From a virus (Duplodnaviria; Heunggongvirae; Uroviricota; Caudoviricetes): a stretch of DNA of 34,457 nucleotides. Shown here piece after piece: positions 2,810-27,506 of this stretch. Position numbers and translations under genes: made by a program. Within the stretch, counting starts at the first letter, position 1. The number at the start of each line of letters is the position of its first letter. Where the stretch lies: positions 1 to 34,457 of the IMG/VR virus record IMGVR_UViG_2908572912_000001, one strand, 5' to 3'. The notes beneath the pieces are model-generated. The model saw only the letters and a program-made list of their open reading frames with translations, did no database searches and was not told where the DNA came from.

Positions 2810-2846
2810 TATTTATAAAAACAACGGCCGTGCCACACGTCCGTTT
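2810..2846. terminator. Diverged copy of the icd 3'-flank hairpin/terminator (aaaacaacggccgtgccacacgtccgtttcaatacttaac)
   Basis: About 45 bp alignable with 3681-3725, with compensatory changes in the hairpin stem. Confidence 0.4.
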
Positions 2847-3306
2847 CAATACTTAACGCACATGTATTTTGGTTTAGTCATCATCCGGTTATATGTATTT
2901 TAGCCAGGAACAGGTTAAATCATTCCTATATAACTCAAAAATTGAAACCTTATTCTCATGTCATGCTTATATTCATTATTATCGTTATATAAAAAGGCAA
3001 CCATAATATTTAGCAAATTGGCACAAAGTAGCATAAAGGCTATGTTTTAATTACAGGATGTTCAGTCATTTGAATGTATAACATTATAGCTAAACAAATC
3101 TAAAACGAAGTCAATAATTTATTGCTTTCACAAAATCTCATTTTGTTTAACATCCATTGAGATTCCTTGCTTTAAATTTTATTTTATATAAGCCATCATT
3201 TTAATTAATTTATTTTTTTGAGGGGGGGGTAATATACTCATATGCAAAATCAAGAAATAAACATCCTAATGAACCATATTAAATACCGTGGGATAAGACA
3301 TAACAA

Positions 3307-3630
3307 ATGAAGTGGATAGTAATTGACACGGTAATTCAACCTACATGTGGTATATCTTTTTCAGCCATATGGGGTAATATGAAAATGATCATCTGGTATC
3401 AATCTACTATATTTCTCCCTCCTGGCAGTATATTTACACCGGTTAAGTCTGGTATTATCCTTAAGGATAAAGAATATCCTATTACTATTTATCACATCGC
3501 ACCATTCAACAAGGATTTATGGAGTTTACTCAAAAGCAGTCAAGAGTGTCCTCCAGGAGAAAGCAAAATAACAAATAAATGTTTACATAATAGTTGCATT
3601 ATAAAAATATGCCCATATGGGCTCAAGTAA
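3307..3630 (+). CDS. iraM: IraM-like anti-adaptor protein (107 aa)
   Basis: 107-aa AT-rich ORF adjacent to icdC, as in K-12 (iraM/ycgW next to the icd pseudo-3'-end); sequence recognised from memory. Confidence 0.65.
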
Positions 3631-3671
3631 TGGGCTTCATATAAATATGCTCGATATGCTATTAATAATAT

Positions 3672-3710
3672 CCACATAAATAAAACAACGGGCGTGTTAT
3701 ACGCCCGTTT
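3672..3710 (-). terminator. icd rho-independent terminator (hairpin aacgggcgtataacacgcccgtt followed by a T-run on the minus strand); also placed to stop iraM
   Basis: GC hairpin plus T-run immediately after the icd stop codon. Confidence 0.6.
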
Positions 3711-3732
3711 CAATATTTAACACATGGAGAGA

Positions 3733-3900
3733 TTACATGTTTTCGATGATCGCTTCACCAAACTCTGAACATTTCAGCAGCTTAGCGCCTTCCATCAGAC
3801 GTTCGAAGTCATAAGTTACGGTCTTGGCATTGATTGCGCCTTCCATACCTTTAACAATCAGGTCAGCCGCTTCAGTCCAACCCATATGGCGCAGCAGTAT
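3733..3900 (-). pseudogene. icdC: Displaced 3' end of icd (isocitrate dehydrogenase), last 55 codons only = icdC-type prophage junction
   Basis: Translation [55 protein letters not shown] equals the Icd C-terminus; similarity stops abruptly at 3900. Confidence 0.9.
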
Positions 3901-4596
3901 ATAAAAACATTAAGTTCAAGTCATTGATATTTAATGATAAAAAATATTTTATTGTTTTTTTATTAGCCAAAATCAACTTTATTCAACCGTTTGATTTCAT
4001 TGACGTTCGTTTTTATTTTGGGGAAAGGTTTTCTCTACCATTTATATCCAAATTACAAGTCTACATTTTATTAACACCTCAATACATGTGAGGCCTTGCA
4101 GACCTTTGTGAGACCTTATGTGTCTCTGTTTTGTCCCAACTTATGTTAAGAGGCACATAATTAAAAATAAGATAACGATGCCGCCAATCAGTGCAAAACC
4201 TTGTTTACTCCACGACTGTCTGCCCCATTATCTGCATACATAATTATCTTCCATAACTGAGATAAATGTCGGTTATGAGCGAACAACAGACGTTTAGTTT
4301 ATGATGACTGTATCTATACATTAAACATAACATCCATTACCGGCACCGCTTATTAATTGCTATCTGATATTGTCACTAAAAAATAGGCATTCCCCGATAT
4401 AATAATTACAAAGAAGCTTTTGGTGCTGGCAATCGGTATACCTAATAGTGGACTGCGACTTTCCGGGCTCGACAAGGATATATCAATGTATGAGCAGGAA
4501 AATTAGACCGTGGTGCGTCATATGATGACTAAGCACGGATAACAGCTACTTAATTGAAACTATTGATTATATTACAGCCAGTGCCTTATAGGATGG

Positions 4597-5718
4597 TTAG
4601 TCATCAACCGCGACTCCTGCACAATCATGGGCTATTGCCAGCAATTGTTTTTTAATTGCTTTAGCATCTACCGTCATATCTACTGTAGCAAAATGGATCT
4701 TATGTCCCTGAGTGACAACATACTCATTAAGCATATAGCCAACAGCTGGATGAAGTAGAAGACCAGCGGCATTGAGCGAAAGCGGATCCGTCTTGTTCTC
4801 CTGTGTTCTAAGGTAGGTATATAGCTGATAAATATAGCCATTACGTAGTGATTGCTCCCGATGCCAACCCTTTGTCAGAATCGAATTAAATTTGGTATCG
4901 ATAATAATACGCCGCTGGGCAGTCTTGTGTTCCAGAATAATGTCTGACTTCATTGTCGGGAAAATCTCTGCACTACCTGCACTTTGATCGCTCAACGCCC
5001 ATTTCAGCTCTTTCCCTGCAGAGACCTGCCAAGTTGTTTTGGCAAGGTGTACACGATATAAGCCAGCGATACCTTTTTCAAATAGTCTTCTCATCCAGTA
5101 AAGGTTATTTGAGGGCGCAGGTAAAAGATATTGGCCTTGATCTTCGGTCGGCATCAGCAGTTCAAAAGCTAATCGTGCGGCATCGACCATCGGTTTATCT
5201 GCGGCATCATGGCGTCCAAAACGCCACACTGAGGGTAATTCGTGGGGGGCAGGATATCCTCCATTTATCCCCTCACGGCGAAGTGATATTGCCATAAAAT
5301 GGCAATCTGCCGCCAAAGACGGTTTCACTATGATTGAGGCCAGACGTTCTAACGCACAGCGAACATAGCGATTTCGGGGGGTGTTGAGGGTTATGTCTTG
5401 AAAATGGCAGGCAACCTGTCCCCGTTCCAGTAGTTGATGACTGGCAGTATACAGTATGTCAATGCGCCCTCTCACCCGGTTCAGGGCCGCATGACAAGTT
5501 TGGTATCCCATATTTAAATTGCGACGTCGGCGCAGCGTAATCTCATGAAGGAGGATTGTCGCCACCAGGTCGGGGATTTCTGCTGGGTTATCTTCTACTG
5601 CGATCTGATTGCGCCCTAACTGACGAAACAGATCTGAAGCGTACAGCATCAGCATCCAGATATTTCGCATGGGAATACGTGATGCTGTATGTTGCTCACT
5701 CCCGGTTATTGTCGTCAT
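4597..5718 (-). CDS. mcrC: McrC-like endonuclease subunit (PD-(D/E)xK) of a McrBC-type modification-dependent restriction system
   Basis: N-terminal IPMRNIWMLMLYA resembles McrC IPVRNIYYMLTYAW; C-terminal IIIDTKF...NGYIYQLYTYL matches the McrC nuclease motif (VDAKY...NLYQLMNYL). 4-bp overlap with upstream mcrB-like gene. Confidence 0.8.
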   Translation of the reverse strand: MTTITGSEQHTASRIPMRNIWMLMLYASDLFRQLGRNQIAVEDNPAEIPDLVATILLHEITLRRRRNLNMGYQTCHAALNRVRGRIDILYTASHQLLERGQVACHFQDITLNTPRNRYVRCALERLASIIVKPSLAADCHFMAISLRREGINGGYPAPHELPSVWRFGRHDAADKPMVDAARLAFELLMPTEDQGQYLLPAPSNNLYWMRRLFEKGIAGLYRVHLAKTTWQVSAGKELKWALSDQSAGSAEIFPTMKSDIILEHKTAQRRIIIDTKFNSILTKGWHREQSLRNGYIYQLYTYLRTQENKTDPLSLNAAGLLLHPAVGYMLNEYVVTQGHKIHFATVDMTVDAKAIKKQLLAIAHDCAGVAVDD

Positions 5719-7697
5719 TTTGCTAATAACACTTTTCTGGCTTCATCGACTTTATTTGGAGCATCGAACCAATATTCGGCGAGCAAAGGGCAGATCTCTG
5801 TATCAACGACTTGTTCATACCAAGCCTGGGCATCGTTGATTTTTTGGCCGATAGCTGGGGTGACATAGCTGTGACCGATACAAAACTGTGGTCCTAAGGT
5901 AACATCTTTTGCCAGCATATCGTTAAGTACCGTCAGTCGAGATTTGATGAATGCTAACATGTCAAAATCAATTGCGTAATTATAATTTACCCAGTTTCTC
6001 CACGCGTCATTAAAAGCTGGCTTTAGATCGATAAACGCGAAACGACGGCGCAGCGCTAGGTCAAGTAGTGCGAGTGAGCGGTCTGCAATATTCATCGTAC
6101 CGATGATATATAGATTCTCAGGAATGTATATTTTTTCATCATCATTTTTAGGATAGGAAAGAGATAATGCCTCAGTCGGCGTGCGTTTATCTGCTTCCAT
6201 CAACGTGAGTGTTTCACCGAAGATTTGCGCCGGATTGCCACGATTAATCTCTTCAATTATCACCACATATTTCGAGGTAGGATTATTGACTGCAGTTTTG
6301 ATTGCATTTACAAAAGGTCCATCAATTAGCGTCAATTGCCCTTCTTTACCTGGACGCCAGCCGCGAATAAAGTCTTCGTAAGAGAGGTTCGGGTGAAATT
6401 GCACCGCGCTAATACGCTCAGGTGCTTTTTCTCCCATCAAGCAGTACGCCAGACGTCGCGCTAACCAGGTTTTTCCAGTTCCGGGTGGTCCTTGTAATAT
6501 CAGGTTTTTCTTGTCGATCAGGCGCTGAAGTGTGAGTTGGATCTTAGCCTCTTCCAAGAAACAGCCATCCTGCACCAGATGACTGATGTCATAAGGAACG
6601 TGAGTGAGTTTTGGCAACGGCGCACTCTCTTCGACAGTTTCCTCAGTTATCGTCTGGGATTCGTTTTTCTCAAAATTCAGGTATTCATAATTTCCGGACT
6701 CAAGGGACTTTAACTCATCATCATTGCATAGTTTCTGTAGATAAAAGTAGATTGAGCTTGTAACTGTTTTGCTCTCAGGATGCTCTACCTTGAATACGTC
6801 CAAGTAGTTTTCTTCCAACTCCGAAGCAGTGAAATAAGGGCCATTTTTTTTCAGGCATAACGCCTTAATTTTATTCAGTAAAGAGGCTTTCCACGTTCTA
6901 TTTGCCACCTCATCTTTAGACTGGCTAAGATCTGTATTCCACGCTGATAAAGAAAGTTCTGGGAAAGAATGAACCGGATAGTTTGGTTGGGTAAAGACCT
7001 CGTTCAGCGCCCGCATAAGACTCAGGTAACTTTGTCCACTACAGCGACCTTTTGCCCCGTTTTTAATGATCTTAATGTTTAACACTGTCTGAATGTAATA
7101 CTGCGACTGGCTATCTAAAGTAGGGTAGAACCAAGGACGGGTCCAGTACAACCCCATGGTGAGATTCCAACCGACATTCATTACTGTAGAAGCGATGTCA
7201 TATGCGGCAGTGAAGTCTGCAGAGTTAGTATTCTGGTTATCCGCAAAGGTCATTGCCTGCGAGAACATTTCCCACAAGCATTCAATGTCATTAGGGTCGC
7301 GTGACTTTTCATAACCAAAGAACCAAGATTTTTGGTTATTCAACAGCGGGATTCCGGCAAAGGAGTCAGGAATCGGTTCGTTCACGCCCAACAAATTCGC
7401 TAGCTTGGCAGCAATAATTTTGCGATTGCTGTCGGTCAAGTTACGATTGAACAAGCCCATAGTAGTAAACGGACAAATGTCTTTTAAGGGAAAGATCTCT
7501 CCCATAATAGATTTGTCCTGCAGATGGGACATTCCTTCCACACCTGAGGCAATTAGATGAATACCTTTGACTAATTCATCTCTACGATTTCGCCAAGTCA
7601 GTAACGCGTTGGCAAAAGCCTCATAAAAACTAGCCCAAGCAAATTTGCCATCATGTTCTGCTGTATCCACGGGAACTCCATTATACTTGTTGAGCAA
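5715..7697 (-). CDS. mcrB: McrB-like AAA+ GTPase (C-terminal 270 aa) with a long, unrecognised N-terminal domain of about 390 aa
   Basis: C-terminal LILQGPPGTGKTWLARRLAYCL, VVIIEEINRGN, YIIGTMNIADRSLALLDLALRRRF align with EcoK McrB GTPase motifs; N-terminal region has no similarity I recognise. Confidence 0.8.
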   Translation of the reverse strand: MLNKYNGVPVDTAEHDGKFAWASFYEAFANALLTWRNRRDELVKGIHLIASGVEGMSHLQDKSIMGEIFPLKDICPFTTMGLFNRNLTDSNRKIIAAKLANLLGVNEPIPDSFAGIPLLNNQKSWFFGYEKSRDPNDIECLWEMFSQAMTFADNQNTNSADFTAAYDIASTVMNVGWNLTMGLYWTRPWFYPTLDSQSQYYIQTVLNIKIIKNGAKGRCSGQSYLSLMRALNEVFTQPNYPVHSFPELSLSAWNTDLSQSKDEVANRTWKASLLNKIKALCLKKNGPYFTASELEENYLDVFKVEHPESKTVTSSIYFYLQKLCNDDELKSLESGNYEYLNFEKNESQTITEETVEESAPLPKLTHVPYDISHLVQDGCFLEEAKIQLTLQRLIDKKNLILQGPPGTGKTWLARRLAYCLMGEKAPERISAVQFHPNLSYEDFIRGWRPGKEGQLTLIDGPFVNAIKTAVNNPTSKYVVIIEEINRGNPAQIFGETLTLMEADKRTPTEALSLSYPKNDDEKIYIPENLYIIGTMNIADRSLALLDLALRRRFAFIDLKPAFNDAWRNWVNYNYAIDFDMLAFIKSRLTVLNDMLAKDVTLGPQFCIGHSYVTPAIGQKINDAQAWYEQVVDTEICPLLAEYWFDAPNKVDEARKVLLAK

Positions 7698-8039
7698 TGA
7701 TAATTTATCTGTGTGAGTTTTAACATATTACTATCAGTTATAGAAAAATTTAACTACCCGATACAGAGAGCGGCATGCTGAATTTGACCTGACTTGCTTC
7801 CAACCAATTAAAATCAACTTATTTATCAATTGGTTATTTTGGCGCATAGCGGTCATCAAGGGAATATCGCGTTGTCATAAGGTGTCGAGGCTCGGAGGTT
7901 CAAATCCTCTCATGCAAAAAATAAATAAAATTAATGACGGTTGGAAATTATTCAATACATACACTCTCGAAAGTGCATCAACCAACCGCAGCACGTCTTG
8001 CATACGGCGTGTCTGCAGTTTTATATAATCCTGGCTGGA

Positions 8040-8262
8040 AACCTCTTATACAAAGTCGATACACCAATATCATAGATGATCGCCACCTTCTGACGCGGGA
8101 CTTTTGATGCAATTAATCGCCCGGCCTGCGCCCATTGTTCTGATGTAAGTTTAGGACGACGTCCACCAATTCCTCCCTGTGCGCGAGCATCTTCCAGTCC
8201 AACTTTTGTTCAGTCATCAATCAGTTCACGCTTCATTTCAACCAGGGCTCCATCACATGGAA
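8040..8262 (-). pseudogene. pin: pin-type DNA invertase (serine recombinase) 3' fragment with internal stop
   Basis: Minus-strand translation ...GALVEMKRELIDD* then ...GLEDARAQGGIGGRRPKLTSEQWAQAGRLIA..PRQKVAIIYDIGVSTLYKRFPA matches the Hin/Gin/Pin C-terminal HTH region; N-terminal catalytic domain absent. Confidence 0.6.
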
Positions 8263-8737
8263 AAATAAAAAAAAACCATCGATGTTGACGTGTCAATGTT
8301 ACCTGTCAGGCTACGGAAATCCCCCCCCTTACCCGCAGCTACTCGGTAAGTATAATAAGATGTTTCCTGCTCCTTCCTAACCTGTCCAGTTTCCAGACAA
8401 TTAAAGTATCACCTTATATAAGAGACTGCAGAGCGCACTTTAACCTAGGTCGTTCTGAAATAGTTGCAGATTCGATTAATCAACGATTATACTCCCCGGC
8501 ACTCCAGAGGATCTGGTAAACATAAAGTCAGAGCTTGGGTATACTGGCACACAAATGGCAGATCTTGCAGGTGCAGCCAGTCATAGCCAGTGGCGAAAAT
8601 ACACGAGTGGTTCTGAGCCCCGCGCCATGTCATCACATATCTTGTTTTTTTATTGCTACCAATCTGACTTTGAGTACTAATGAGCTAGATAGAATTGTTT
8701 GTAAAATAAAAAAAATTGGAACAGTGATTATATAAAA

Positions 8738-9826
8738 ATGAAGAAGGTAAAATCAATTCACTATTTGCGAGGTGTAGCAGCATTACTCGTTGTTGCATAT
8801 CACAATAAACAATACCTAAATGAAGTTTACGCACAAAAAGATCTAGGTGATTTATTGTTTATTAGTGGTGGTTTTGGGGTTGATCTGTTTTTTATTATAA
8901 GTGGATTTATAATAATGTTATCGAGTCAAAAAAAAGAAACAAATTCCCCTATTAACTTTATGACCAGGCGTTTTTTCAGGATTTACCCTGTATTTTTCAT
9001 TTGCACAATCTTATTCTTTTTATTGAACCCAGTCTTCACCGAAAGTGAATTATTGCGTTCATTGTTTCTGCTTCACCTGGACTATTATTCAGAAGCGCCA
9101 TTCTTCGGATACAACGTGCTTTATCCAGCATGGACATTAACCTTTGAAGTCTATTTTTATTTCATTTTTATGCTTGCAATATCGCTGAGTCATAAAAACA
9201 GATTATTAATATCAGTTATTGCATTGATAGTCCCGCTACTTCTCATACAGTTGAAATTTTCCAACAGCCTTTCTCTATCAAGTAAGTTTACGATTGGTGA
9301 TACAGGTCATTGGCATATTGGCTTTCTAAACTTAATGTCATCACCCATGCTGTTAGAATTCGTTTATGGGATGTTTCTGTATATAATACACAGAAAATTT
9401 AAATATATAAAAAACGCAAAGGCGATATCATTCCTTTTGGTTTCATTTGGTGTTTGCTCATATTTTTATCAATTCAGATTTGGTCATGGCCCTTTAAACT
9501 TCGGATTGTGGGCAGCCTCCATAATTACGGGAGTTTTACTTTATGAAGTTAACTTCGGATTAAGGGAAAATAAAATACTCAGTAAGCTAGGTGATATCTC
9601 TTACTCTCTGTATTTATCCCATGCGATAGTAATGCTATTTTTAATTAATTTTAAGGATTTCATTCCGCTTTATGAAAAACCTGGGTTCTCTAAGTTTTCA
9701 TTCATTATTGCTCTTAGCTTGTTCTTATCATTCTTTATTTATAAATATATTGAAACTCCATTCATTAATATCGGAAAAACAATATCCAAAAGACTTTCAA
9801 AACCAACATTAACTTATAGCGAATAG
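8738..9826 (+). CDS. Acyltransferase family 3 integral membrane protein (OafA/Oac-like O-acyltransferase), AT-rich cargo gene
   Basis: 362 aa, about 10 hydrophobic segments, N-terminal YLRGVAALLVVAYH and FFIISGF motifs typical of acyltransferase-3; very low GC relative to neighbours. Confidence 0.75.
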   Translation: MKKVKSIHYLRGVAALLVVAYHNKQYLNEVYAQKDLGDLLFISGGFGVDLFFIISGFIIMLSSQKKETNSPINFMTRRFFRIYPVFFICTILFFLLNPVFTESELLRSLFLLHLDYYSEAPFFGYNVLYPAWTLTFEVYFYFIFMLAISLSHKNRLLISVIALIVPLLLIQLKFSNSLSLSSKFTIGDTGHWHIGFLNLMSSPMLLEFVYGMFLYIIHRKFKYIKNAKAISFLLVSFGVCSYFYQFRFGHGPLNFGLWAASIITGVLLYEVNFGLRENKILSKLGDISYSLYLSHAIVMLFLINFKDFIPLYEKPGFSKFSFIIALSLFLSFFIYKYIETPFINIGKTISKRLSKPTLTYSE

Positions 9827-10130
9827 TACTCACAAGAGCAAGTGGCGCAATAGTAAAAATCTGTTGCGCCCACATTATAAATCGCTCTCCAATAGCAAAG
9901 TATCTTAGTGACTAAGCATTACCTAAGTTATCACTATAAACACAAAATACTACGCGGAGCGGAATAGTGCTCTCCTTTTGACCAGCTATTGCATGGTAAA
10001 TAGTGGGGCTGTTTTTCTATTTGACCGAGCTGTATCTGCCCCTCGATATGTTGCCCTCACGCAATATTCCAAATGTCAGTAAAACGGCAGGTGTAGCGGT
10101 ATTATGCGCAGCTATTTAGGAGTTGCTGGG

Positions 10131-19984: not shown

Positions 19985-20150
19985 CCTCCGCAGAGATCAA
20001 ACGCTGGATGCAAAAAAACGCAGGTGCATTTCTGCATCTGTGGCAAGGCGAGGAGTTCAACTTGTGGTCGCATATAATTTCCCAATCATATGCGCAGAAG
20101 TCACCGCAGGGTGTTCAGGCCAACGGTGACGGTATTATTGCTTATTGATT
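19985..20150. repeat. Copy A of a ~150-bp imperfect direct repeat (blocks AGGTGCATTTCTGCATCTGTG ... GCGCAGAAGTCACCG..GTTCAGGC ... AT-rich)
   Basis: Hand alignment with 21470-21625: 21/21 identical first block, second block with hairpin whose loop contains GTTCAGG in both copies. Confidence 0.6.
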
Positions 20151-20459: not shown

Positions 20460-21074
20460 CTAACGTTGTTTAATAACATTCTGACGCAAATGTGGCAATA
20501 CTCGACTCCACTTATCATCCTGCCACGGCTGGAATTTTACATGTGCCGTTTCTCTGGCGAGGATTGCTCGCGCTCTGGTGAGTATCTGGGGATATTCTTG
20601 CTCGATGGAAGTGAAGCGACCAGCTTCACGATGCTCCGCAACCTGAAGAAGAGGAGTAACGTTCTGGCAGGCGGTTAACATCGCATCCCCAGCTCGCCAT
20701 AACCAAGCAAGTGTGCAAAGTTCGTTATCAGTGAATTGTTTTGTGATCGGGGATTGTTGAACTTCTCGATCGAGAATATCCAGAACCCAGCGGCGGAACT
20801 CTTTGGCTACAGGAGTTCGTGCAAACATGGCGATCAAATGGGCTCCGCGAAGGCTAAATACTCGAGACTCCTGCATTCCACGAGGGGTGGTCACTTTGAC
20901 CACCCTTGTCATCATATCTGTAAATTCATCTGAGTGACGGGAGTAAATGCGCTGAACTGCTTTATCGTCCGCATATTCCAGAGCTAAACCAACTTCAGTG
21001 GCAGTAAGCCAAATTCTGTTATTGTGGCAAATTGGGGTAAACGTCGTTTTGTGGAATGCTAATTGAGTAGTCAT
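20460..21074 (-). CDS. Bro-N domain DNA-binding protein (Roi/antirepressor-like)
   Basis: N-terminal ...ICHNNRIWLTATEVGLALEYADDKAVQRIYSRHSDEF... fits the Bro-N fold pattern; sits in the nin region like HK022 roi. Confidence 0.65.
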   Translation of the reverse strand: MTTQLAFHKTTFTPICHNNRIWLTATEVGLALEYADDKAVQRIYSRHSDEFTDMMTRVVKVTTPRGMQESRVFSLRGAHLIAMFARTPVAKEFRRWVLDILDREVQQSPITKQFTDNELCTLAWLWRAGDAMLTACQNVTPLLQVAEHREAGRFTSIEQEYPQILTRARAILARETAHVKFQPWQDDKWSRVLPHLRQNVIKQR

Positions 21075-21228
21075 AGTTTCACCTCATCAGGTTAACCATC
21101 ACCACCAACGACGCCAATCGACTGGTGGTGAACTGTGCAAGGTTGGCGTAACCGGCTACTCAAATCCGGCGCTCCCGAAGAAGCCCTCACACAGCCCACC
21201 ATAATTTGGGCGTAGCCGTGCTTAGCGC

Positions 21229-21252
21229 ATAAAAAAACCGCTTAACGCGGTA
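21229..21252 (-). terminator. Rho-independent terminator on the minus strand after the NACHT cassette (accgc gttaa gcggt + T7)
   Basis: 5-bp GC stem with a 7-nt T-run on the minus strand. Confidence 0.4.
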
Positions 21253-21469
21253 TGCGTTGAGTAGTATTCCGGGACGCCAATCCCGTGTGCCGATTTTGCG
21301 GCAACGCACAGAATATATCCCCAGATAAATCATGTCGTCAACCCCAGTAAATGGACACCATGATGATCACAGCCATAGCTGCTACAACAGTTACAACTAC
21401 CTCAGGCCAAAACATAACGATTTCCATATCACCTTTAGCCGCCAGACGAATAGAGACTCCCAATTCTGG

Positions 21470-21625
21470 CTGTCGAAGTAAAACACCGAATGTAAAAAAT
21501 CGTAGGTGCATTTCTGCATCTGTGAATGGAGAAGATAGGTTGGATTGTATGTGCGCATAAACGTCCCCGTTTAGCGCAGAAGTCACCGGAGTTGTTCAGG
21601 CTCCGGCTTATTAATATTGCCTACT
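21470..21625. repeat. Copy B of the ~150-bp direct repeat; includes hairpin ccggag ttgttcagg ctccgg
   Basis: See copy A. Confidence 0.6.
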
Positions 21626-21685
21626 TACAATTAATTTTTCAACTGTTAGAAACTTATAATTAGCTGTCTCTTTGTAACTATCAAT

Positions 21686-23581
21686 TTAATTATTTTTCTT
21701 TAACTTGAAATTTCTTCCCATTGCTAGTGTTCTTCGAAGATTCGAATCATAAGCTGGTTGATAATATCTATCATAAAAATCCTTAATTGTCTGATGGTAA
21801 GTATCCAGCATCAAACCATAAAACCCCATGACCTTAAGATAATCCACCAAGGGAAATAAATAATCATCAGTCTGAACATCAGTATCAATATTATTTTTTT
21901 GTTTTTTAACTTCAAATTTGTATAAGTTTAACTCACCCTTATCCATCGTGCATGAAAAAAGGTCGTCAAAAATCAAATCAATTTTTGTCATAGGAACTCG
22001 TTCTTTTCCAGACATTATAGGTAGAATATCAATACCTAAGAGCGAACCTAATACAAAGTCGTAATGAAGCGAAATCACTGAGTCATTCGATGTCGAGTTG
22101 CCTTTGATAAATACTCTACTTAGTGCCGAGTCAAAAACATTCTCAACTCTCTCTCTCGTCATGTTTGCGACATCTACAACCCCCATATCACGAGAAGCTT
22201 TTATTGTGATTTCATCTATAAATGCTTTGGAATCTAGTGAATGTAAAAACAACATGAAGTTATCTAACTGTTCAGAGCATTTAATAGCCACCATAAGATT
22301 TTCGTATATATCTTTTTTATACTCAATCGGTAAATTTGCTACCGCAAAAGCAGCATAAAATTCTTGCACTGATTTATGCAGAAAAACATACCTATTATTT
22401 CCCTCAGGTTGGATAAGGCAAGTTATCTCAATAAGATCATCTATAAAGTTTGATGCATCTTCTTTAAGATAACCTTCTGTTTCAATAGCATCTTCAGCAT
22501 ATCTAAGCAACTCCTCTCCCCAAAACTCAAATTTCTCCTCAATCAGTGCGTTATAGCAAATAGCTGAAAAACACAATTTAGCTTTTTCACCAATAATGTT
22601 TGATTTTTTCTCGCGCGTATATACTTTTATTTTATCATGCCTTGCATATAAGGTGTCAAAGAGGCTTCGATAAAACTCTATTATATTATTTGGAATATCA
22701 TTCATATAAGGATAACAATAATACAAAAGAGTAACTAAAATTGGATTGCAAATAGTTCCCTCAAGTTCTTCTTTATCACATAGTAAATCCGCCAAGACTT
22801 TAAACGAGGCATCACTACTTGAGAATCTGTCATTTTTCGATAAAGAATGAAGAATACAAATCTTATCAGAAATATTTAGCTTATCTATAAAAATATTATA
22901 CACATCAGTAGTATAACATATATCTGTATTTGGTCTCGTTGTTGCGATAATTGGTGTGTTAAAATGATAATGAATGTTTTTTATTTCATTCATCATCATA
23001 GTTCGCTCTTCATGTTTAACCTCATCAAATCCATCCAACATTAAAACGACTCTTTGGGATTGCAGTAATATTTTCAAGCTATCCTCTGAACACCCCACAC
23101 CAAATGAATTAAGAATGTCTGCCAGATAAGCAATAATATTTGCATTCTTCACCCTTCTTAATTCAATAAAAAAAGGCATCCGTTCTGATTTTTTTATTTC
23201 CTCGCTAAACAACTTGCGTAAAATAGTACTTTTCCCTTGCCCCGCTATACCGACTATATTTACAATACCATGAAATGGTAAAGTGACCCCATCTTTTATA
23301 ACGACCTTGTCTTTATTAGATGCCACCTCAACAGTTAACGGATAATAAATATCATCTAAAAAAATATCATAATCAGCGTTGTGCAAAGTTCTCATTTTCA
23401 GAGATGGTAGCACATGCTTTCTTAAATAATTTTCTCTTCCGAGGGGATCATTTAATTGTTCGAGTATAACCTTGCCTTCATCTAGGTCCCTAGCCCAAGG
23501 TTTAGAGAGCAATACTTCTGTTATTTTTTCCGCAGCTTTTCCTACTGTGCTATTAATAATAGTCGCAAGAAACTCATCCAT
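21686..23581 (-). CDS. NACHT-family STAND NTPase (bacterial NLR-like), candidate antiphage protein; ~110-aa N-terminal region, central NACHT, ~350-aa C-terminal region
   Basis: Walker A GIAGQGKST, NACHT-type Walker B VVLMLDGFDEV, sensor-1-like IIATTRP; GC ~30 percent island. Start placed at ATG (MDEFL...) preceded by GGTGA; track alt-start gives 23638. Confidence 0.8.
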   Translation of the reverse strand: MDEFLATIINSTVGKAAEKITEVLLSKPWARDLDEGKVILEQLNDPLGRENYLRKHVLPSLKMRTLHNADYDIFLDDIYYPLTVEVASNKDKVVIKDGVTLPFHGIVNIVGIAGQGKSTILRKLFSEEIKKSERMPFFIELRRVKNANIIAYLADILNSFGVGCSEDSLKILLQSQRVVLMLDGFDEVKHEERTMMMNEIKNIHYHFNTPIIATTRPNTDICYTTDVYNIFIDKLNISDKICILHSLSKNDRFSSSDASFKVLADLLCDKEELEGTICNPILVTLLYYCYPYMNDIPNNIIEFYRSLFDTLYARHDKIKVYTREKKSNIIGEKAKLCFSAICYNALIEEKFEFWGEELLRYAEDAIETEGYLKEDASNFIDDLIEITCLIQPEGNNRYVFLHKSVQEFYAAFAVANLPIEYKKDIYENLMVAIKCSEQLDNFMLFLHSLDSKAFIDEITIKASRDMGVVDVANMTRERVENVFDSALSRVFIKGNSTSNDSVISLHYDFVLGSLLGIDILPIMSGKERVPMTKIDLIFDDLFSCTMDKGELNLYKFEVKKQKNNIDTDVQTDDYLFPLVDYLKVMGFYGLMLDTYHQTIKDFYDRYYQPAYDSNLRRTLAMGRNFKLKKNN

Positions 23582-23968
23582 TTTTTCACCACATTCATTA
23601 ACCAATACGTGGTGCATTCTTACAAGACTCAGTAACAATTGTCAATCATAGGTTTTCGCATGATTGCAAAACGCCATAAACAATTGTAGCACCATAATTT
23701 TAAACACTATAAATATACAACCTTCCTACAAGCATTCAGTACATCGCTTAATCACAGGGCTTGAATATATAGTAAGGAATCGATATTAATCACCTCATCT
23801 ACTTTAAACATCTTACACACCTATAATTTATAATAGTCAACACGAGGTCATCATATTAAACATGCAATTACAAACATTCATTTTTATATAAATTTTCATG
23901 ATTTAACCGTAGAGCGACGGTAATAAATTTCATATACAAGGATTTAAGCTCCCATACGTTTTCTATTA

Positions 23969-24148
23969 TTAAAAATAACATACCGTTCGCCAGACCTTAC
24001 CATCAATGACCAGGATTCCTGCCCGCGCCATTTTTGCCGCAGCCTGATTTATGCTGGTTAATGTCACACCTGTTGTCGCAGCAACGTCCGGCGCACAGAA
24101 GCTCTTGTGCGTCCCCAGGTAATGAATAATTGCTTCTTTTCCCGTCAT
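23969..24148 (-). pseudogene. ren: ren, 3'-truncated (about 55 Ren-like codons then 4 foreign codons and stop)
   Basis: MTGKEAIIHYLGTHKSFCAPDVAATTGVTLTSINQAAAKMARAGILVIDGKVWRTV matches the lambda Ren N-terminus; ATGA overlap with P stop; homology ends where the AT-rich island begins. Confidence 0.7.
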
Positions 24149-24786
24149 ACACTGGCTCCTTTCAGTCCGAACTTAGCTTTGATTTCTGCAATCTTCGCCA
24201 GAGCCTGTGCACGATTTAGAGGTCTACCGCCCATGACAGGAAGTTGTTTTACTGGTTCAGGTATAGCCTCACCACGGTTAATTCTCGCAGTCATATGGGC
24301 AAGTTCATCGGCAGCCTTGCGCCGTAATTCCGAGTCAGTCAACGCATTAGCCCGCATGTTCTGATACAGGTTGGTAACCAGCCAGTAGTGCGCGTTTGAT
24401 TTCCACGGATAAGACTCTGCGTCCGGATACAGGCCACGCTTCCGGCAATACTCGTAAACCATATCAACCAGCTCGCTGGCGTTTGGCAGTCCGGCGGTAA
24501 CGGATGCTTCTTCCCGGCACCAGGCGACAAACTGCCCGGGTGATGGCAGGAATGGTCGATTCTGCCGACGGGCTACGCGCATTCCTGCGTTAACCTGTTC
24601 CATTGTGGTGATCCCGTTTTCCCGGAAAGCCAGAACCCACTGGCGGCGGATTTCGTTCAGTTCGTTCTGATCCCGGTTAGCCAGGCTCGCAGGGAAAGTT
24701 GCCAGTAACTGTCTGAACACACCGTTGATGATCTGCGCTACCTGCTGTATCTGCTGGTTTAATCTTTCCACCAGTGGCTGAGACAA
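24145..24786 (-). pseudogene. P: Replication protein P with intact C-terminal ~205 residues but disrupted 5' end; no O gene present
   Basis: ...QQVAQIINGVFRQLLATFPASLANRDQNELNEIRRQWVLAFRENGITTMEQ...AKIAEIKAKFGLKGASV matches lambda P; the P-type ATGAAAA start lies 52 nt upstream in a different frame, continuous with the upstream HTH ORF. Confidence 0.8.
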
Positions 24787-24925
24787 TTTTCATTACATAG
24801 CGGGCATCAATTCCGCCACCGTGTAGCCAACGCCAAACTGTGGGTTGGGCTACACCGCATAGATCTGCCAGTCGTTTTTGACTACCTGTAATACTGATTG
24901 CGAGTTGAATGGTTTGATTTGTCAT
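24677..24925 (-). CDS. Cro-like HTH protein; the native C-terminus is uncertain because the frame runs through the P start region
   Basis: MTNQTIQLAISITGSQKRLADLCGVAQPTVWRWLHGG has a Cro/CI-type HTH; divergent from cI across an operator region. Confidence 0.5.
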   Translation of the reverse strand: MTNQTIQLAISITGSQKRLADLCGVAQPTVWRWLHGGGIDARYVMKIVSATGGKIKPADTAGSADHQRCVQTVTGNFPCEPG

Positions 24926-25035
24926 TATCAATTCCTATTGGTATTGCAATGAATAAATAATAGCAATGCGTATTAATCCAAGCAATAGCAAAACGTGTTT
25001 TGACCATCAATACGCAAGCGTATAAATTAAAACTT
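24926..25035. promoter_or_regulatory. Immunity-region divergent promoters and operators: pR candidate on minus strand (-35 TTGCTT 24980-24985, 17-bp spacer, -10 TATTAT 24957-24962); pRM candidate on plus strand (-35 TTGACC 24999-25004, -10 TATAAA 25021-25026) giving near-leaderless cI
   Basis: Consensus-like sigma70 hexamers with 16-17 bp spacing; spacers contain TAGCAAT/GCAATAGCAA and TACGCAAGCGTA motifs. Confidence 0.55.
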
Positions 25036-25857: not shown

Positions 25858-26997
25858 ATGGCAGCGGTTGAATTTCAATTGTCTAGGAAGATGATTGATT
25901 GGATAGCAAATTCTCAAGGAGTTTCTATCGAAACTCTTGCTGACCAAGTCATGCCCAAAAAGATTAATAAATTTCTTAACGGAGTGGTAAGTAAATCCGC
26001 AGCAGAAAAACTGGCAAAAATTGGAGGAATCCCTTTCGGTTTTTTATTTCTTGAAACGCCACCAACTCCAGCCAAACCCAAGATCCCTGACTTAAGGCAA
26101 GCTATAAATAGCCGTGAGTTAGGAAAAGATTTTTTTGATGTTTACTATGATATAGAATATAAACTTGAGTGGTACAAAGACTATTTAAGAGAAAATGGTA
26201 ATGATGATCCACTCGATTTTATTGGTAAATTTAAATTTAATAGAAAATTAAATTATAAGGTTGTTGCTACAGACATAGCAAACACAATACATTTTGATAT
26301 ACAAAAAGAGATAAAAAATGTCACTTTTGAGAGCTATTTTTCTAAAGTGGCAAAACTAATAGAAGACACTGGCGTATTAGTTTTCAAGAATGGTGTTGTG
26401 GGTAATAATAATAAAAGAAAACTTGACACGCGAGAGTTTCGTGGTTTCTGTATATCTGATAGCGTTGCTCCGATCATTTTTGTAAATAGCTCGGACGCGT
26501 TATCTGCGCAGGTATTTACATTATTTCATGAGGTGGCTCATCTTTGGCTTGGAGTCGATGGAGTCTCTGGGTGGGACACAGAAAAAAACATAGAATCTTT
26601 TTGTAATAAAGTTGCTGCTGAAATCTTAATGCCTGATAATCTCTTCAAATCTTTCTGGCTTAATGCATCCAGCGATAATAATTATTATCGAGTAAAAGAG
26701 GTTTCTAAGTTATTTAAGGTTAGTGATTTCGCTTGTGCAATCAAAGCGTTACAATTAGATTTGATAGAAAGAAACACTTTGGAGATAATTAAAGATCAAG
26801 CTTACAATAAGCCCAAAAAAGAATCCAATGGTGGTTCTTTCTTTAACACATTACCTGTTCGTAACAGTCCAAAACTTACGAATATAATAATTTCCAAAGC
26901 AATGTCTCAACAATTACCATTAAGGGAAGCAGGCGTACTGCTAAATGTAAAAGCAGATACAGTTGTTGAATTTTATAAAAAACGAGAATCTCTATGA
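25858..26997 (+). CDS. HTH domain fused to ImmA/IrrE-family HExxH metallopeptidase (COG2856-like)
   Basis: HEVAHLWLG zinc-binding motif at about residue 215; N-terminal HTH-like segment; GC ~33 percent; located where rexA-rexB sit in lambda. Confidence 0.75.
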   Translation: MAAVEFQLSRKMIDWIANSQGVSIETLADQVMPKKINKFLNGVVSKSAAEKLAKIGGIPFGFLFLETPPTPAKPKIPDLRQAINSRELGKDFFDVYYDIEYKLEWYKDYLRENGNDDPLDFIGKFKFNRKLNYKVVATDIANTIHFDIQKEIKNVTFESYFSKVAKLIEDTGVLVFKNGVVGNNNKRKLDTREFRGFCISDSVAPIIFVNSSDALSAQVFTLFHEVAHLWLGVDGVSGWDTEKNIESFCNKVAAEILMPDNLFKSFWLNASSDNNYYRVKEVSKLFKVSDFACAIKALQLDLIERNTLEIIKDQAYNKPKKESNGGSFFNTLPVRNSPKLTNIIISKAMSQQLPLREAGVLLNVKADTVVEFYKKRESL

Positions 26998-27506
26998 TTC
27001 ATAATGGAAAATTCTTAATTGATAGTAATGTCTTCATAGAGGCAAAAAACTTTGCATATAACTTCAATTATTGCAAAATATTTTGGGATTTTCTTCTCGC
27101 TTTACACATTAATGGTCTGATTTATAGCATTAATGCTGTAAAAAAATAACTATGTGCAAAAGATGATCCATTGTGTAAATGGATTAAAGAAGAGTTACCA
27201 TCATCATTCTTCGAAGATGAGCATAGTTCAATAGAAAATTATGCAAAGTTAATAAATTGGTCAACTAAATTAGATGTTACCGAAAAGGCAAAGTTTGATT
27301 TTGCAAGCCATGAAAAAGCAGATGCTTTTTTAATAGCCCATGCGATGACACATGGATATACTATTATTACCCATGAGAAACCATCCGGTGGCAAACCTAA
27401 AAAAAGAATAATGATCCCGGATGCTGCTGCTTCTCACGGCGTTAAGACATTAACACTATATGAATTTCTTCCAAGATACGCTAGTCATAATTTTTCTTTG
27501 AAATAA
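26994..27506 (+). pseudogene. DUF4411-like PIN-like nuclease gene, translationally coupled (ATGA) to the ImmA gene, interrupted by an in-frame TAA at 27147-27149
   Basis: Codons 1-51 MIHNGKFLIDSNVFIEAKNF... (PIN-like Asp in LIDSN) then TAA, then the same frame continues 118 codons to 27506 (...ADAFLIAHAMTHGYTIITHEKP...). Frame verified codon by codon. Confidence 0.65.

Follow-up and report, generated by a model that had tools for sequence, protein, structure and literature searches.

A predicted single-protein antiphage gene of the clade-14 bNACHT family at a variable cargo site of a lambda-like Escherichia coli prophage

Among the bacterial NACHT proteins (bNACHTs), clade 14 is the most abundant clade (bioRxiv 10.1101/2024.12.17.629029). 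In its member bNACHT11, the domain named SNaCT (short NACHT-associated C-terminal) binds several phage proteins unrelated to one another through beta-augmentation and a hydrophobic patch, binding drives the formation of a heptamer via NACHT-NACHT and SNaCT-SNaCT contacts, and the clustered N-terminal extensions of about 45 residues lead to plasmolysis and abortive infection (bioRxiv 10.1101/2024.12.17.629029). The N-terminal consensus of the clade is MDPIT, and defence by bNACHT11 is abolished by N-terminal additions and by the D2A and P3A substitutions (bioRxiv 10.1101/2024.12.17.629029). Four tested members, bNACHT11, bNACHT02, bNACHT12 and bNACHT01, are listed as one-gene operons and protect against T2, T4 and T6, against MS2 and T7, against T4, T6 and MS2, and against T4, T5 and T6, respectively (bioRxiv 10.1101/2022.07.19.500537). 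Here we describe a NACHT gene at positions 21686..23581 on the minus strand of a 34,457-nucleotide stretch of viral DNA (IMG/VR record IMGVR_UViG_2908572912_000001; the whole stretch is hereafter called the window), where it lies in a low-GC cassette of a lambda-like Escherichia coli prophage. It seems likely, with a probability that we put at roughly 0.8, that the cassette encodes a single-protein antiphage sensor-effector, namely a clade-14 bNACHT resembling bNACHT01 and bNACHT11, carried as a 'moron' in a hotspot between ren and the nin region. The NACHT label of the protein in RefSeq, as well as the antiphage role and mechanism of clade 14, were already known.

The gene encodes 631 amino acids followed by a stop codon and corresponds to RefSeq WP_024239936.1, 'NACHT domain-containing protein'. 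The longest open frame in the list of open reading frames (ORFs), 21686-23638 on the minus strand, reaches 650 amino acids from a TTG at 23638, so the protein of 632-650 residues proposed in the initial annotation does exist as an ORF; the true start is likely the ATG at 23581, as in RefSeq. The starts giving 643 residues (23617) and 650 residues (TTG 23638) were rejected, because clade-14 proteins start at a conserved MD and additions to the N-terminus inactivate bNACHT11, GGTG is located 6 nt before the ATG at 23581, and a promoter-like -10 element overlaps 23617. This element belongs to a predicted promoter, TTGACA-18 nt-AAGAAT with a TG extension (23616..23645, minus strand; 10 of 12 positions matching in a consensus scan), which precedes the ATG at 23581 by about 35 nt, overlaps the alternative ATG at 23617 and would initiate transcription downstream of the latter. 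A scan for terminators found no convincing intrinsic terminator 3' of the NACHT gene. The hairpin at 21586-21606 was considered as a terminator and rejected, being a conserved inverted repeat of the orf33 leader (see below) without a T-run on the coding strand.

Judged from its motifs and its model, the protein is an intact NACHT-type STAND NTPase with a predicted NLR-like fold. The NACHT module, comprising the nucleotide-binding domain, the helical domain and the winged helix, was assigned to aa 61-435 (22277..23401, minus strand) using Pfam and Foldseek. Pfam NACHT (PF05729) matches aa 126-237 of the 650-aa frame with 43.9 bits against a cut-off of 26.7 (E 3e-11). All three motifs read in the initial annotation, GIAGQGKST, VVLMLDGFDEV and IIATTRP, are present. 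In the Walker A motif GIAGQGKST (aa 111-119, 23225-23251, minus strand), K117 is invariant in 111 relatives, as are D183, G184, D186 and E187 of the Walker B motif DGFDE (aa 183-187, 23021-23035, minus strand). The latter fits the signature D[GAS]hDE that separates NACHT from other STAND NTPases (Kibby et al.). The sensor arginine R216 is aligned with R214 of bNACHT11, a nucleotide-binding residue that was mutated as a control (bioRxiv 10.1101/2024.12.17.629029). An AlphaFold2 model based on the 111 relatives was confident (pLDDT 89.6, pTM 0.88), and its top Foldseek matches were NLRC4, NOD2 and NLRP3, with NLRC4 (4KXF) at E 1.7e-12 over 466 columns; the same NLR top matches were reported by the authors of the bNACHT11 structure (bioRxiv 10.1101/2024.12.17.629029). 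The predicted resemblance to these eukaryotic NLRs extends over about 460-510 columns of the NACHT fold (E 1e-12 to 1e-8), whereas the identity is 14-17% and the window protein has no LRRs, CARD or PYD and no TPR or WD40 arrays, its putative sensor being a short SNaCT domain and its putative effector a short N-terminal extension. The NACHT assignment of the initial annotation was thereby upheld by both the profile search that it had proposed and the structure prediction. Other searches returned little. The PDB, in a copy that did not include the bNACHT11 structure 9ORF, gave no sequence match at E <= 0.001, and NCBIfam gave ABC/EttA P-loop matches at noise level. PADLOC-DB 2.0.0, with Avs/AVAST and other catalogued STAND defence systems, contained no defence-system match for the NACHT protein (noise only, E >= 0.014), a null result that is uninformative on bNACHT membership, because the controls, namely one protein with 99% identity to the bNACHT11 fragment as well as stand-ins resembling bNACHT01 and bNACHT02, were equally unmatched.

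We compared the window protein with the tested proteins using Table S2 of Kibby et al. (bioRxiv 10.1101/2022.07.19.500537), which gives their first ~400 residues. Over these ~400 amino acids, the identities to bNACHT11, bNACHT02, bNACHT12 and bNACHT01 are 41, 37, 35 and 38%, respectively, and the alignments start at residue 1. Against a near-full-length protein 99% identical to bNACHT11, the identity is 39% over aa 1-452. By sequence, the window protein is thus a member of the characterised clade-14 bNACHT antiphage family and not a new kind of system, in line with the recognised antiphage family named in the initial annotation. The likeness to bNACHT11 (Klebsiella pneumoniae WP_114260439.1) includes the length (631 versus 639 aa), the same three-part layout, the single gene, the conserved Walker A, DGFDE and sensor arginine, and a collinear C-terminal domain, and the likeness to bNACHT01, bNACHT02 and bNACHT12 includes the one-gene arrangement, although the window protein belongs to a different sub-lineage from these three. 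A database search returned a large family of NACHT proteins of 610-650 aa in Enterobacterales, Vibrio, Aeromonas and their relatives; bNACHT01, bNACHT02 and bNACHT12 are missing from the listed 120 best relatives of the window protein. At 90% identity, its cluster comprises 382 sequences, which come from E. coli, Salmonella enterica and E. marmotae.

The initial annotation could name no effector or sensor motif in either terminus, a statement that does not hold when the protein is aligned with clade 14. The N-terminal region (aa 1-60, 23402..23581, minus strand) consists of four short helices and aligns with bNACHT11 from Met1 without gaps. It begins MDEFL, unlike the MDPIT of bNACHT11, with D2 and W29 conserved and P3 replaced by E. 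Pro3 is also absent from the functional bNACHT01 (MDIIQ) and bNACHT12 (MDLVF), and the N-termini in the subfamily read MDE[FVI], VDEI, MDAL or MDPL. The ~110-aa N-terminal region as a whole represents the region shared by clade 14, in which a short putative effector extension is followed by a conserved pre-NTPase segment.

The C-terminal 196 amino acids (aa 436-631, 21689..22276, minus strand) were assigned by profile comparison to a putative, diverged SNaCT sensor domain. A profile built from the C-termini of 32 relatives positive for Pfam SNaCT1 scored 32.3 bits on the last 196 residues of the window protein and 32-47 bits on its eight closest relatives. With hhalign, the window subfamily aligned to the SNaCT1 group with 97.5% probability (E 6.5e-12), and the SNaCT1 group aligned to the bNACHT11 group with 94.4% probability (E 8.7e-8). 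Some of the NACHT proteins with Pfam SNaCT1 (PF22710) from Vibrio, Photobacterium, Aeromonas and Pseudoalteromonas are 33-37% identical to the window protein at 94-100% query coverage, and the C-terminal domains are homologous, even though the window protein stays below the Pfam threshold. In the AlphaFold2 model the C-terminal domain is a compact alpha/beta structure, and it is collinear with the SNaCT domain of bNACHT11 in having a strand region of hydrophobic character and, close to the C-terminal tail, an aromatic residue that is conserved. BLAST against bNACHT11 gave no similarity in the last ~180 residues, and the identity in SNaCT is about 14%. A mapping of the bNACHT11 interface residues S518, I519, F522, I549 and I553 was dropped as too uncertain at this identity. 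From the profile comparisons we conclude that the C-terminus is a SNaCT domain whose type is remote from the characterised one. No other part of the protein evolves as fast, the identity within the subfamily being 42-49% here compared with 70-76% for the NACHT module; rapid sensor diversification has been described for clade 14.

By analogy with bNACHT11, the likeliest function of the window protein would be that of an abortive-infection sensor. In an uninfected lysogen, the protein would be made from its own predicted promoter and would stay monomeric. When a superinfecting phage expresses certain proteins, these might be bound by the SNaCT domain, upon which the NACHT modules would oligomerise in a nucleotide-dependent manner and bring together the short MD-initiated N-terminal effector regions. 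The cell would then die or arrest before the phage cycle is completed, and the kin of the lysogen would be protected. Pairwise comparison detects no similarity between this SNaCT domain and the one in bNACHT11, so other phage triggers are to be expected. Several points weigh against this interpretation. The antiphage role rests on relatives that are at most 41% identical, and the promoter is a match to the consensus only. Pro3 of the MDPIT consensus is Glu in the window protein, while P3A kills the defence by bNACHT11. Homology to the characterised SNaCT domain appears to be transitive only, via the SNaCT1-positive intermediates; a direct hhalign comparison of the window subfamily with the bNACHT11 SNaCT was not significant (E 0.29), and Pfam SNaCT1 did not match the window protein at E <= 0.1. 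Its closest relatives reach 21-24 bits with Pfam SNaCT1, below the cut-off of 27. The same Pfam profile also misses the protein 99% identical to bNACHT11 and the stand-ins for bNACHT02, bNACHT01 and bNACHT12 (47-76% identical to the bNACHT11 fragment), and because these controls are unmatched, Pfam SNaCT1 covers only part of SNaCT diversity and does not define the clade.

The cassette carrying the gene spans 21606..23983 (2,378 bp, minus strand), with breakpoints taken from blastn comparisons to a related prophage, to lambda and to further lambdoid phages. Its GC content is 0.322 compared with 0.446 for the whole window, the profile drops to 0.28-0.37 across the block, and no other 2.4-kb stretch of the window is lower; the block of ~2.4 kb and ~30% GC seen in the initial annotation is therefore real. 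The cassette contains the one NACHT gene with 402 bp of non-coding DNA upstream and 80 bp downstream, and an Rfam search inside it found nothing above noise. At its right edge, homology to the related prophage stops at 23984, corresponding to ren codon 55, and homology to phage lambda stops at 23976, at about codon 57 of 96, which agrees with the truncation near codon 55 noted initially. The truncated ren (23969..24148, minus strand), identified by comparing its translation with lambda Ren (96 aa), has 59 codons, made up of about 56 codons of ren and 3 foreign codons, and a stop; RefSeq labels it 'protein ren, incomplete, missing C-terminus'. No remnant of the 3' part of ren (codons ~57/58-96) is present anywhere in the window. 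On the left, the homology shared with other lambdoid phages begins again at 21605/21606, at the linker called repeat copy B in the initial annotation. We found no sign of target duplication at the cassette junctions.

The same cassette, bounded by the same two junctions, was found in 9 of 5,426 complete E. coli genomes. Strain ANT has it standing alone between the truncated ren and the ninB linker, which it directly abuts; in lambda, ninB follows 73 bp after ren. Other E. coli prophages have unrelated cargo in the interval between P or ren and the linker, such as a TagO-annotated gene with hypothetical genes in one prophage and two other hypothetical genes with an antirepressor module in another, and phage Lambda_4C10 has an alpha/beta hydrolase gene and others there. 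Because the 3' part of ren is gone, no target is duplicated and unrelated cargo lies between the same flanks elsewhere, the cassette is one interchangeable cargo unit at a variable hotspot, where it replaced the 3' part of ren. The earlier proposal of an island inserted into ren thus stands as far as a foreign low-GC cassette truncating ren is concerned, but the event was a replacement and not a clean insertion.

The stretch 21300-24200 is 100% identical to the chromosome of E. coli AR_0369 (NZ_CP027140.1). According to RefSeq annotation, the carrier is a lambda-like E. coli prophage integrated at icd; a fragment of icd is found at ~3733-3900, and the integrase occupies the window's right end. 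The prophage is defective: it has no O, it contains an inserted IS3 element, its late genes, J among them, are in part truncated, and its P gene, without the N-terminus, adjoins a cro-like gene. The minus strand of the window carries the early-right operon, cro-P-ren-nin-Q. At 24145-24931 (minus strand), the P gene without its N-terminus overlaps an ORF for a YdaS/Cro-like helix-turn-helix protein, and the O and cII region is absent. A deletion has joined the immunity region to mid-P, and this fusion renders the carrier prophage replication-incompetent. The NACHT gene has stayed intact while O, P, J and other genes were deleted or truncated, which suggests upkeep for the host.

A defective carrier would also be expected if the gene were a non-functional or non-defence passenger, either a remnant of a cryptic prophage or a STAND NTPase for host regulation. 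No phenotype is known for this NACHT allele, and the cassette is rare among the complete genomes. We nevertheless consider such a passenger improbable: the 1,896-nt ORF is unbroken within 32%-GC DNA, all catalytic and family-invariant residues are retained, the gene is 99-100% identical across unrelated strains and belongs to the 382-member cluster, a conserved NACHT module combined with a diversifying sensor is the typical pattern of immune receptors, and in related prophages the NACHT gene stands beside other accessory or defence-type cargo.

These related loci are uniform in their setting. For the close relatives (62-100% identity), every readable contig is a lambdoid prophage in which the gene lies between the replication module and the nin/rusA/ylcG/Q modules, and at every such locus it is co-oriented with the early-right operon. 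The prophage that has the 100%-identical gene retains O and P intact and shows the same truncation of ren, and genes of 62-66% identity occur in metagenomic prophages. The 62%-identical Enterobacter gene follows P and stands beside genes for an FRG-domain protein, a Ser/Thr protein kinase and a KAP NTPase; at positions 2841-9905 of this contig, the same prophage hotspot thus holds a candidate defence island of several genes. The non-coding gap upstream of the gene measures 180-640 bp at the relatives' loci. The downstream neighbours differ at every locus examined, without any conserved partner gene.

The constant co-orientation with the cro-O-P-ren-nin-Q unit implies read-through on induction, and the gene might accordingly serve the carrier phage, being transcribed from PR in the lytic cycle and excluding co-infecting competitors or timing lysis. 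We judge this unlikely, somewhat more so than a mere passenger, since the gene is preceded by an AT-rich gap of ~400 bp with a promoter-like site, as expected of morons expressed in the lysogen, and has been kept in a prophage that can no longer replicate. Such a service to the carrier would also be largely a variant of the antiphage role that we favour, as the exclusion of competitors is itself antiphage defence. Lambdoid phages have other prophage-borne defence cargo, namely accessory abortive-infection genes expressed in the lysogen and located at variable sites, as with rexAB beside cI in lambda and bstA in BTP1 (bioRxiv 10.1101/2020.07.13.199331), and the NACHT cassette may be analogous to these, although the proteins are unrelated and the site is ren-nin rather than the immunity region.

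At the left boundary of the cassette, repeat copy B is confirmed as a linker of 125 bp (21481..21605, minus strand). Other prophages have one copy of it, to which copy B is 94% identical, and a diverged copy A at 19999-20120 immediately precedes ninB/ybcN, about 1.5 kb from copy B. The linker corresponds to the beginning of X92588, the nin-region record of phage 82, where it is annotated as orf33 with its ribosome-binding site, and contains the inverted repeat CCGGAG(N9)CTCCGG at 21586-21606, annotated in X92588 as a 'possible regulator-binding site'. The linker is the conserved leader of the orf33-ninB(ybcN)-ninE-rusA-Q operon of phages of the phage 82/DLP12 type. At the left junction (21586-21645, minus strand), five upstream sequences that are unrelated in other respects share an invariant -35-like TTGA and an invariant -10-like A..AT; these elements lie upstream of the inverted repeat, at a putative promoter in X92588. 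This site may be a conserved, independently regulated promoter of the orf33-ninB-rusA-Q operon.

A module of the P1 immI/Gifsy isrK type (20460-21480, minus strand) adjoins the NACHT cassette. On the minus strand it has a C4 antisense RNA (21121-21206, Rfam 72.4 bits), an isrK RNA (21231-21303, 60.7 bits) and sub-threshold a1/b1 C4 targets (21266-21318), all upstream of a Bro-N/P22AR antirepressor-like gene (20460-21074, minus strand). Copies A and B of the orf33 linker flank the module on its two sides, as if recombination at the linker had brought it in.

The 82-aa hydrophobic ORF (21338..21586, minus strand), which the initial annotation proposed as a possible partner of the NACHT gene, falls into this part of the locus. 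Situated 100 bp downstream of the NACHT gene and on its strand, the frame is open and ends in a hydrophobic tail of ~20 residues; in addition, its residues 26-82 (57 aa, 21338-21511) match phrog_4612 end to end with E 1.5e-42. One might then envisage a two-gene system in which the NACHT protein signals to a small hydrophobic membrane effector. Its first ~35 codons, however, lie in the conserved linker, where phage 82 and RefSeq have a different frame annotated (orf33), the rest of the ORF falls in the leader DNA of the C4/isrK antirepressor module, and a promoter-like site overlaps its stop. In E. coli 19AR1724, which has the antirepressor module and no NACHT gene, all 82 residues are present with 96% conservation, whereas in strain ANT, which has the NACHT gene and no antirepressor module, the ORF retains its first 35 residues only. 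It is absent from all examined loci with homologous NACHT genes, and clade-14 bNACHTs act as single genes. The open frame and the hydrophobic tail are thus real, and the partnership is not; the two-gene arrangement is extremely improbable and, by the comparison of gene neighbourhoods, already refuted. A small tail-anchored phage protein may be encoded here from the ATG at 21511, upstream of the C4/isrK leader, and if real, this protein would be part of the antirepressor module rather than of the NACHT cassette.

Elsewhere in the window we observed other genes of defence type. At 25858-27506 (plus strand), a gene for an ImmA/IrrE metallopeptidase and a DUF4411 gene that has an internal stop lie directly 3' of the cI-like repressor gene, where lambda has rexAB, and the peptidase matches CapP (52.7 bits), RmrA and PD-Lambda-2_B in PADLOC. 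This pair looks like a second cargo site, of defence or toxin-antitoxin type and possibly decayed; strain VTB97448v has a SIR2-family gene at the site 3' of the cI-like repressor gene. Near the far end of the icd-flanked element, a McrBC-type restriction pair (mcrC and an AAA ATPase gene; 4597-7670, minus strand) is followed by a broken recombinase gene and an acyltransferase gene. With the McrBC-type pair inside it, the element has several defence-type cargos.

The searchable literature contained nothing on WP_024239936 or on 'lambdoid' together with 'bNACHT', and WP_024239936 is absent from the supplementary tables of Kibby et al. Accordingly, it is not stated there that the sub-lineage is consistently prophage-borne at the lambdoid replication-nin junction, that its sensor is of a distant SNaCT type, or that the cassette truncates ren. 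The gene is carried in a lambdoid prophage hotspot, unlike that of bNACHT11. It is conceivable, though we hold this only tentatively, that the prophage-restricted sub-lineage with its diverged SNaCT domain senses different triggers, plausibly proteins of competing temperate (lambdoid) phages. As the NACHT gene lies inside the carrier's own early-right operon, the carrier would then have to lack these triggers or neutralise the sensor on induction, which would be a natural case of NLR self-tolerance, and the ren-nin junction might serve as a general exchange point for such cargo among lambdoid phages.

The mechanism of the family is largely described, and the locus opens no new category. It adds to the best-understood bacterial NLR-like family a prophage-borne sub-lineage that is at most 41% identical to any tested protein and has a very different putative sensor, placed repeatedly at one exchange point of lambda-like prophages, from replication to nin. 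The sub-lineage is useful for the annotation of cargo in E. coli prophages, and it may provide a test case both for the diversification of SNaCT sensors and for how a phage tolerates its own NLR.

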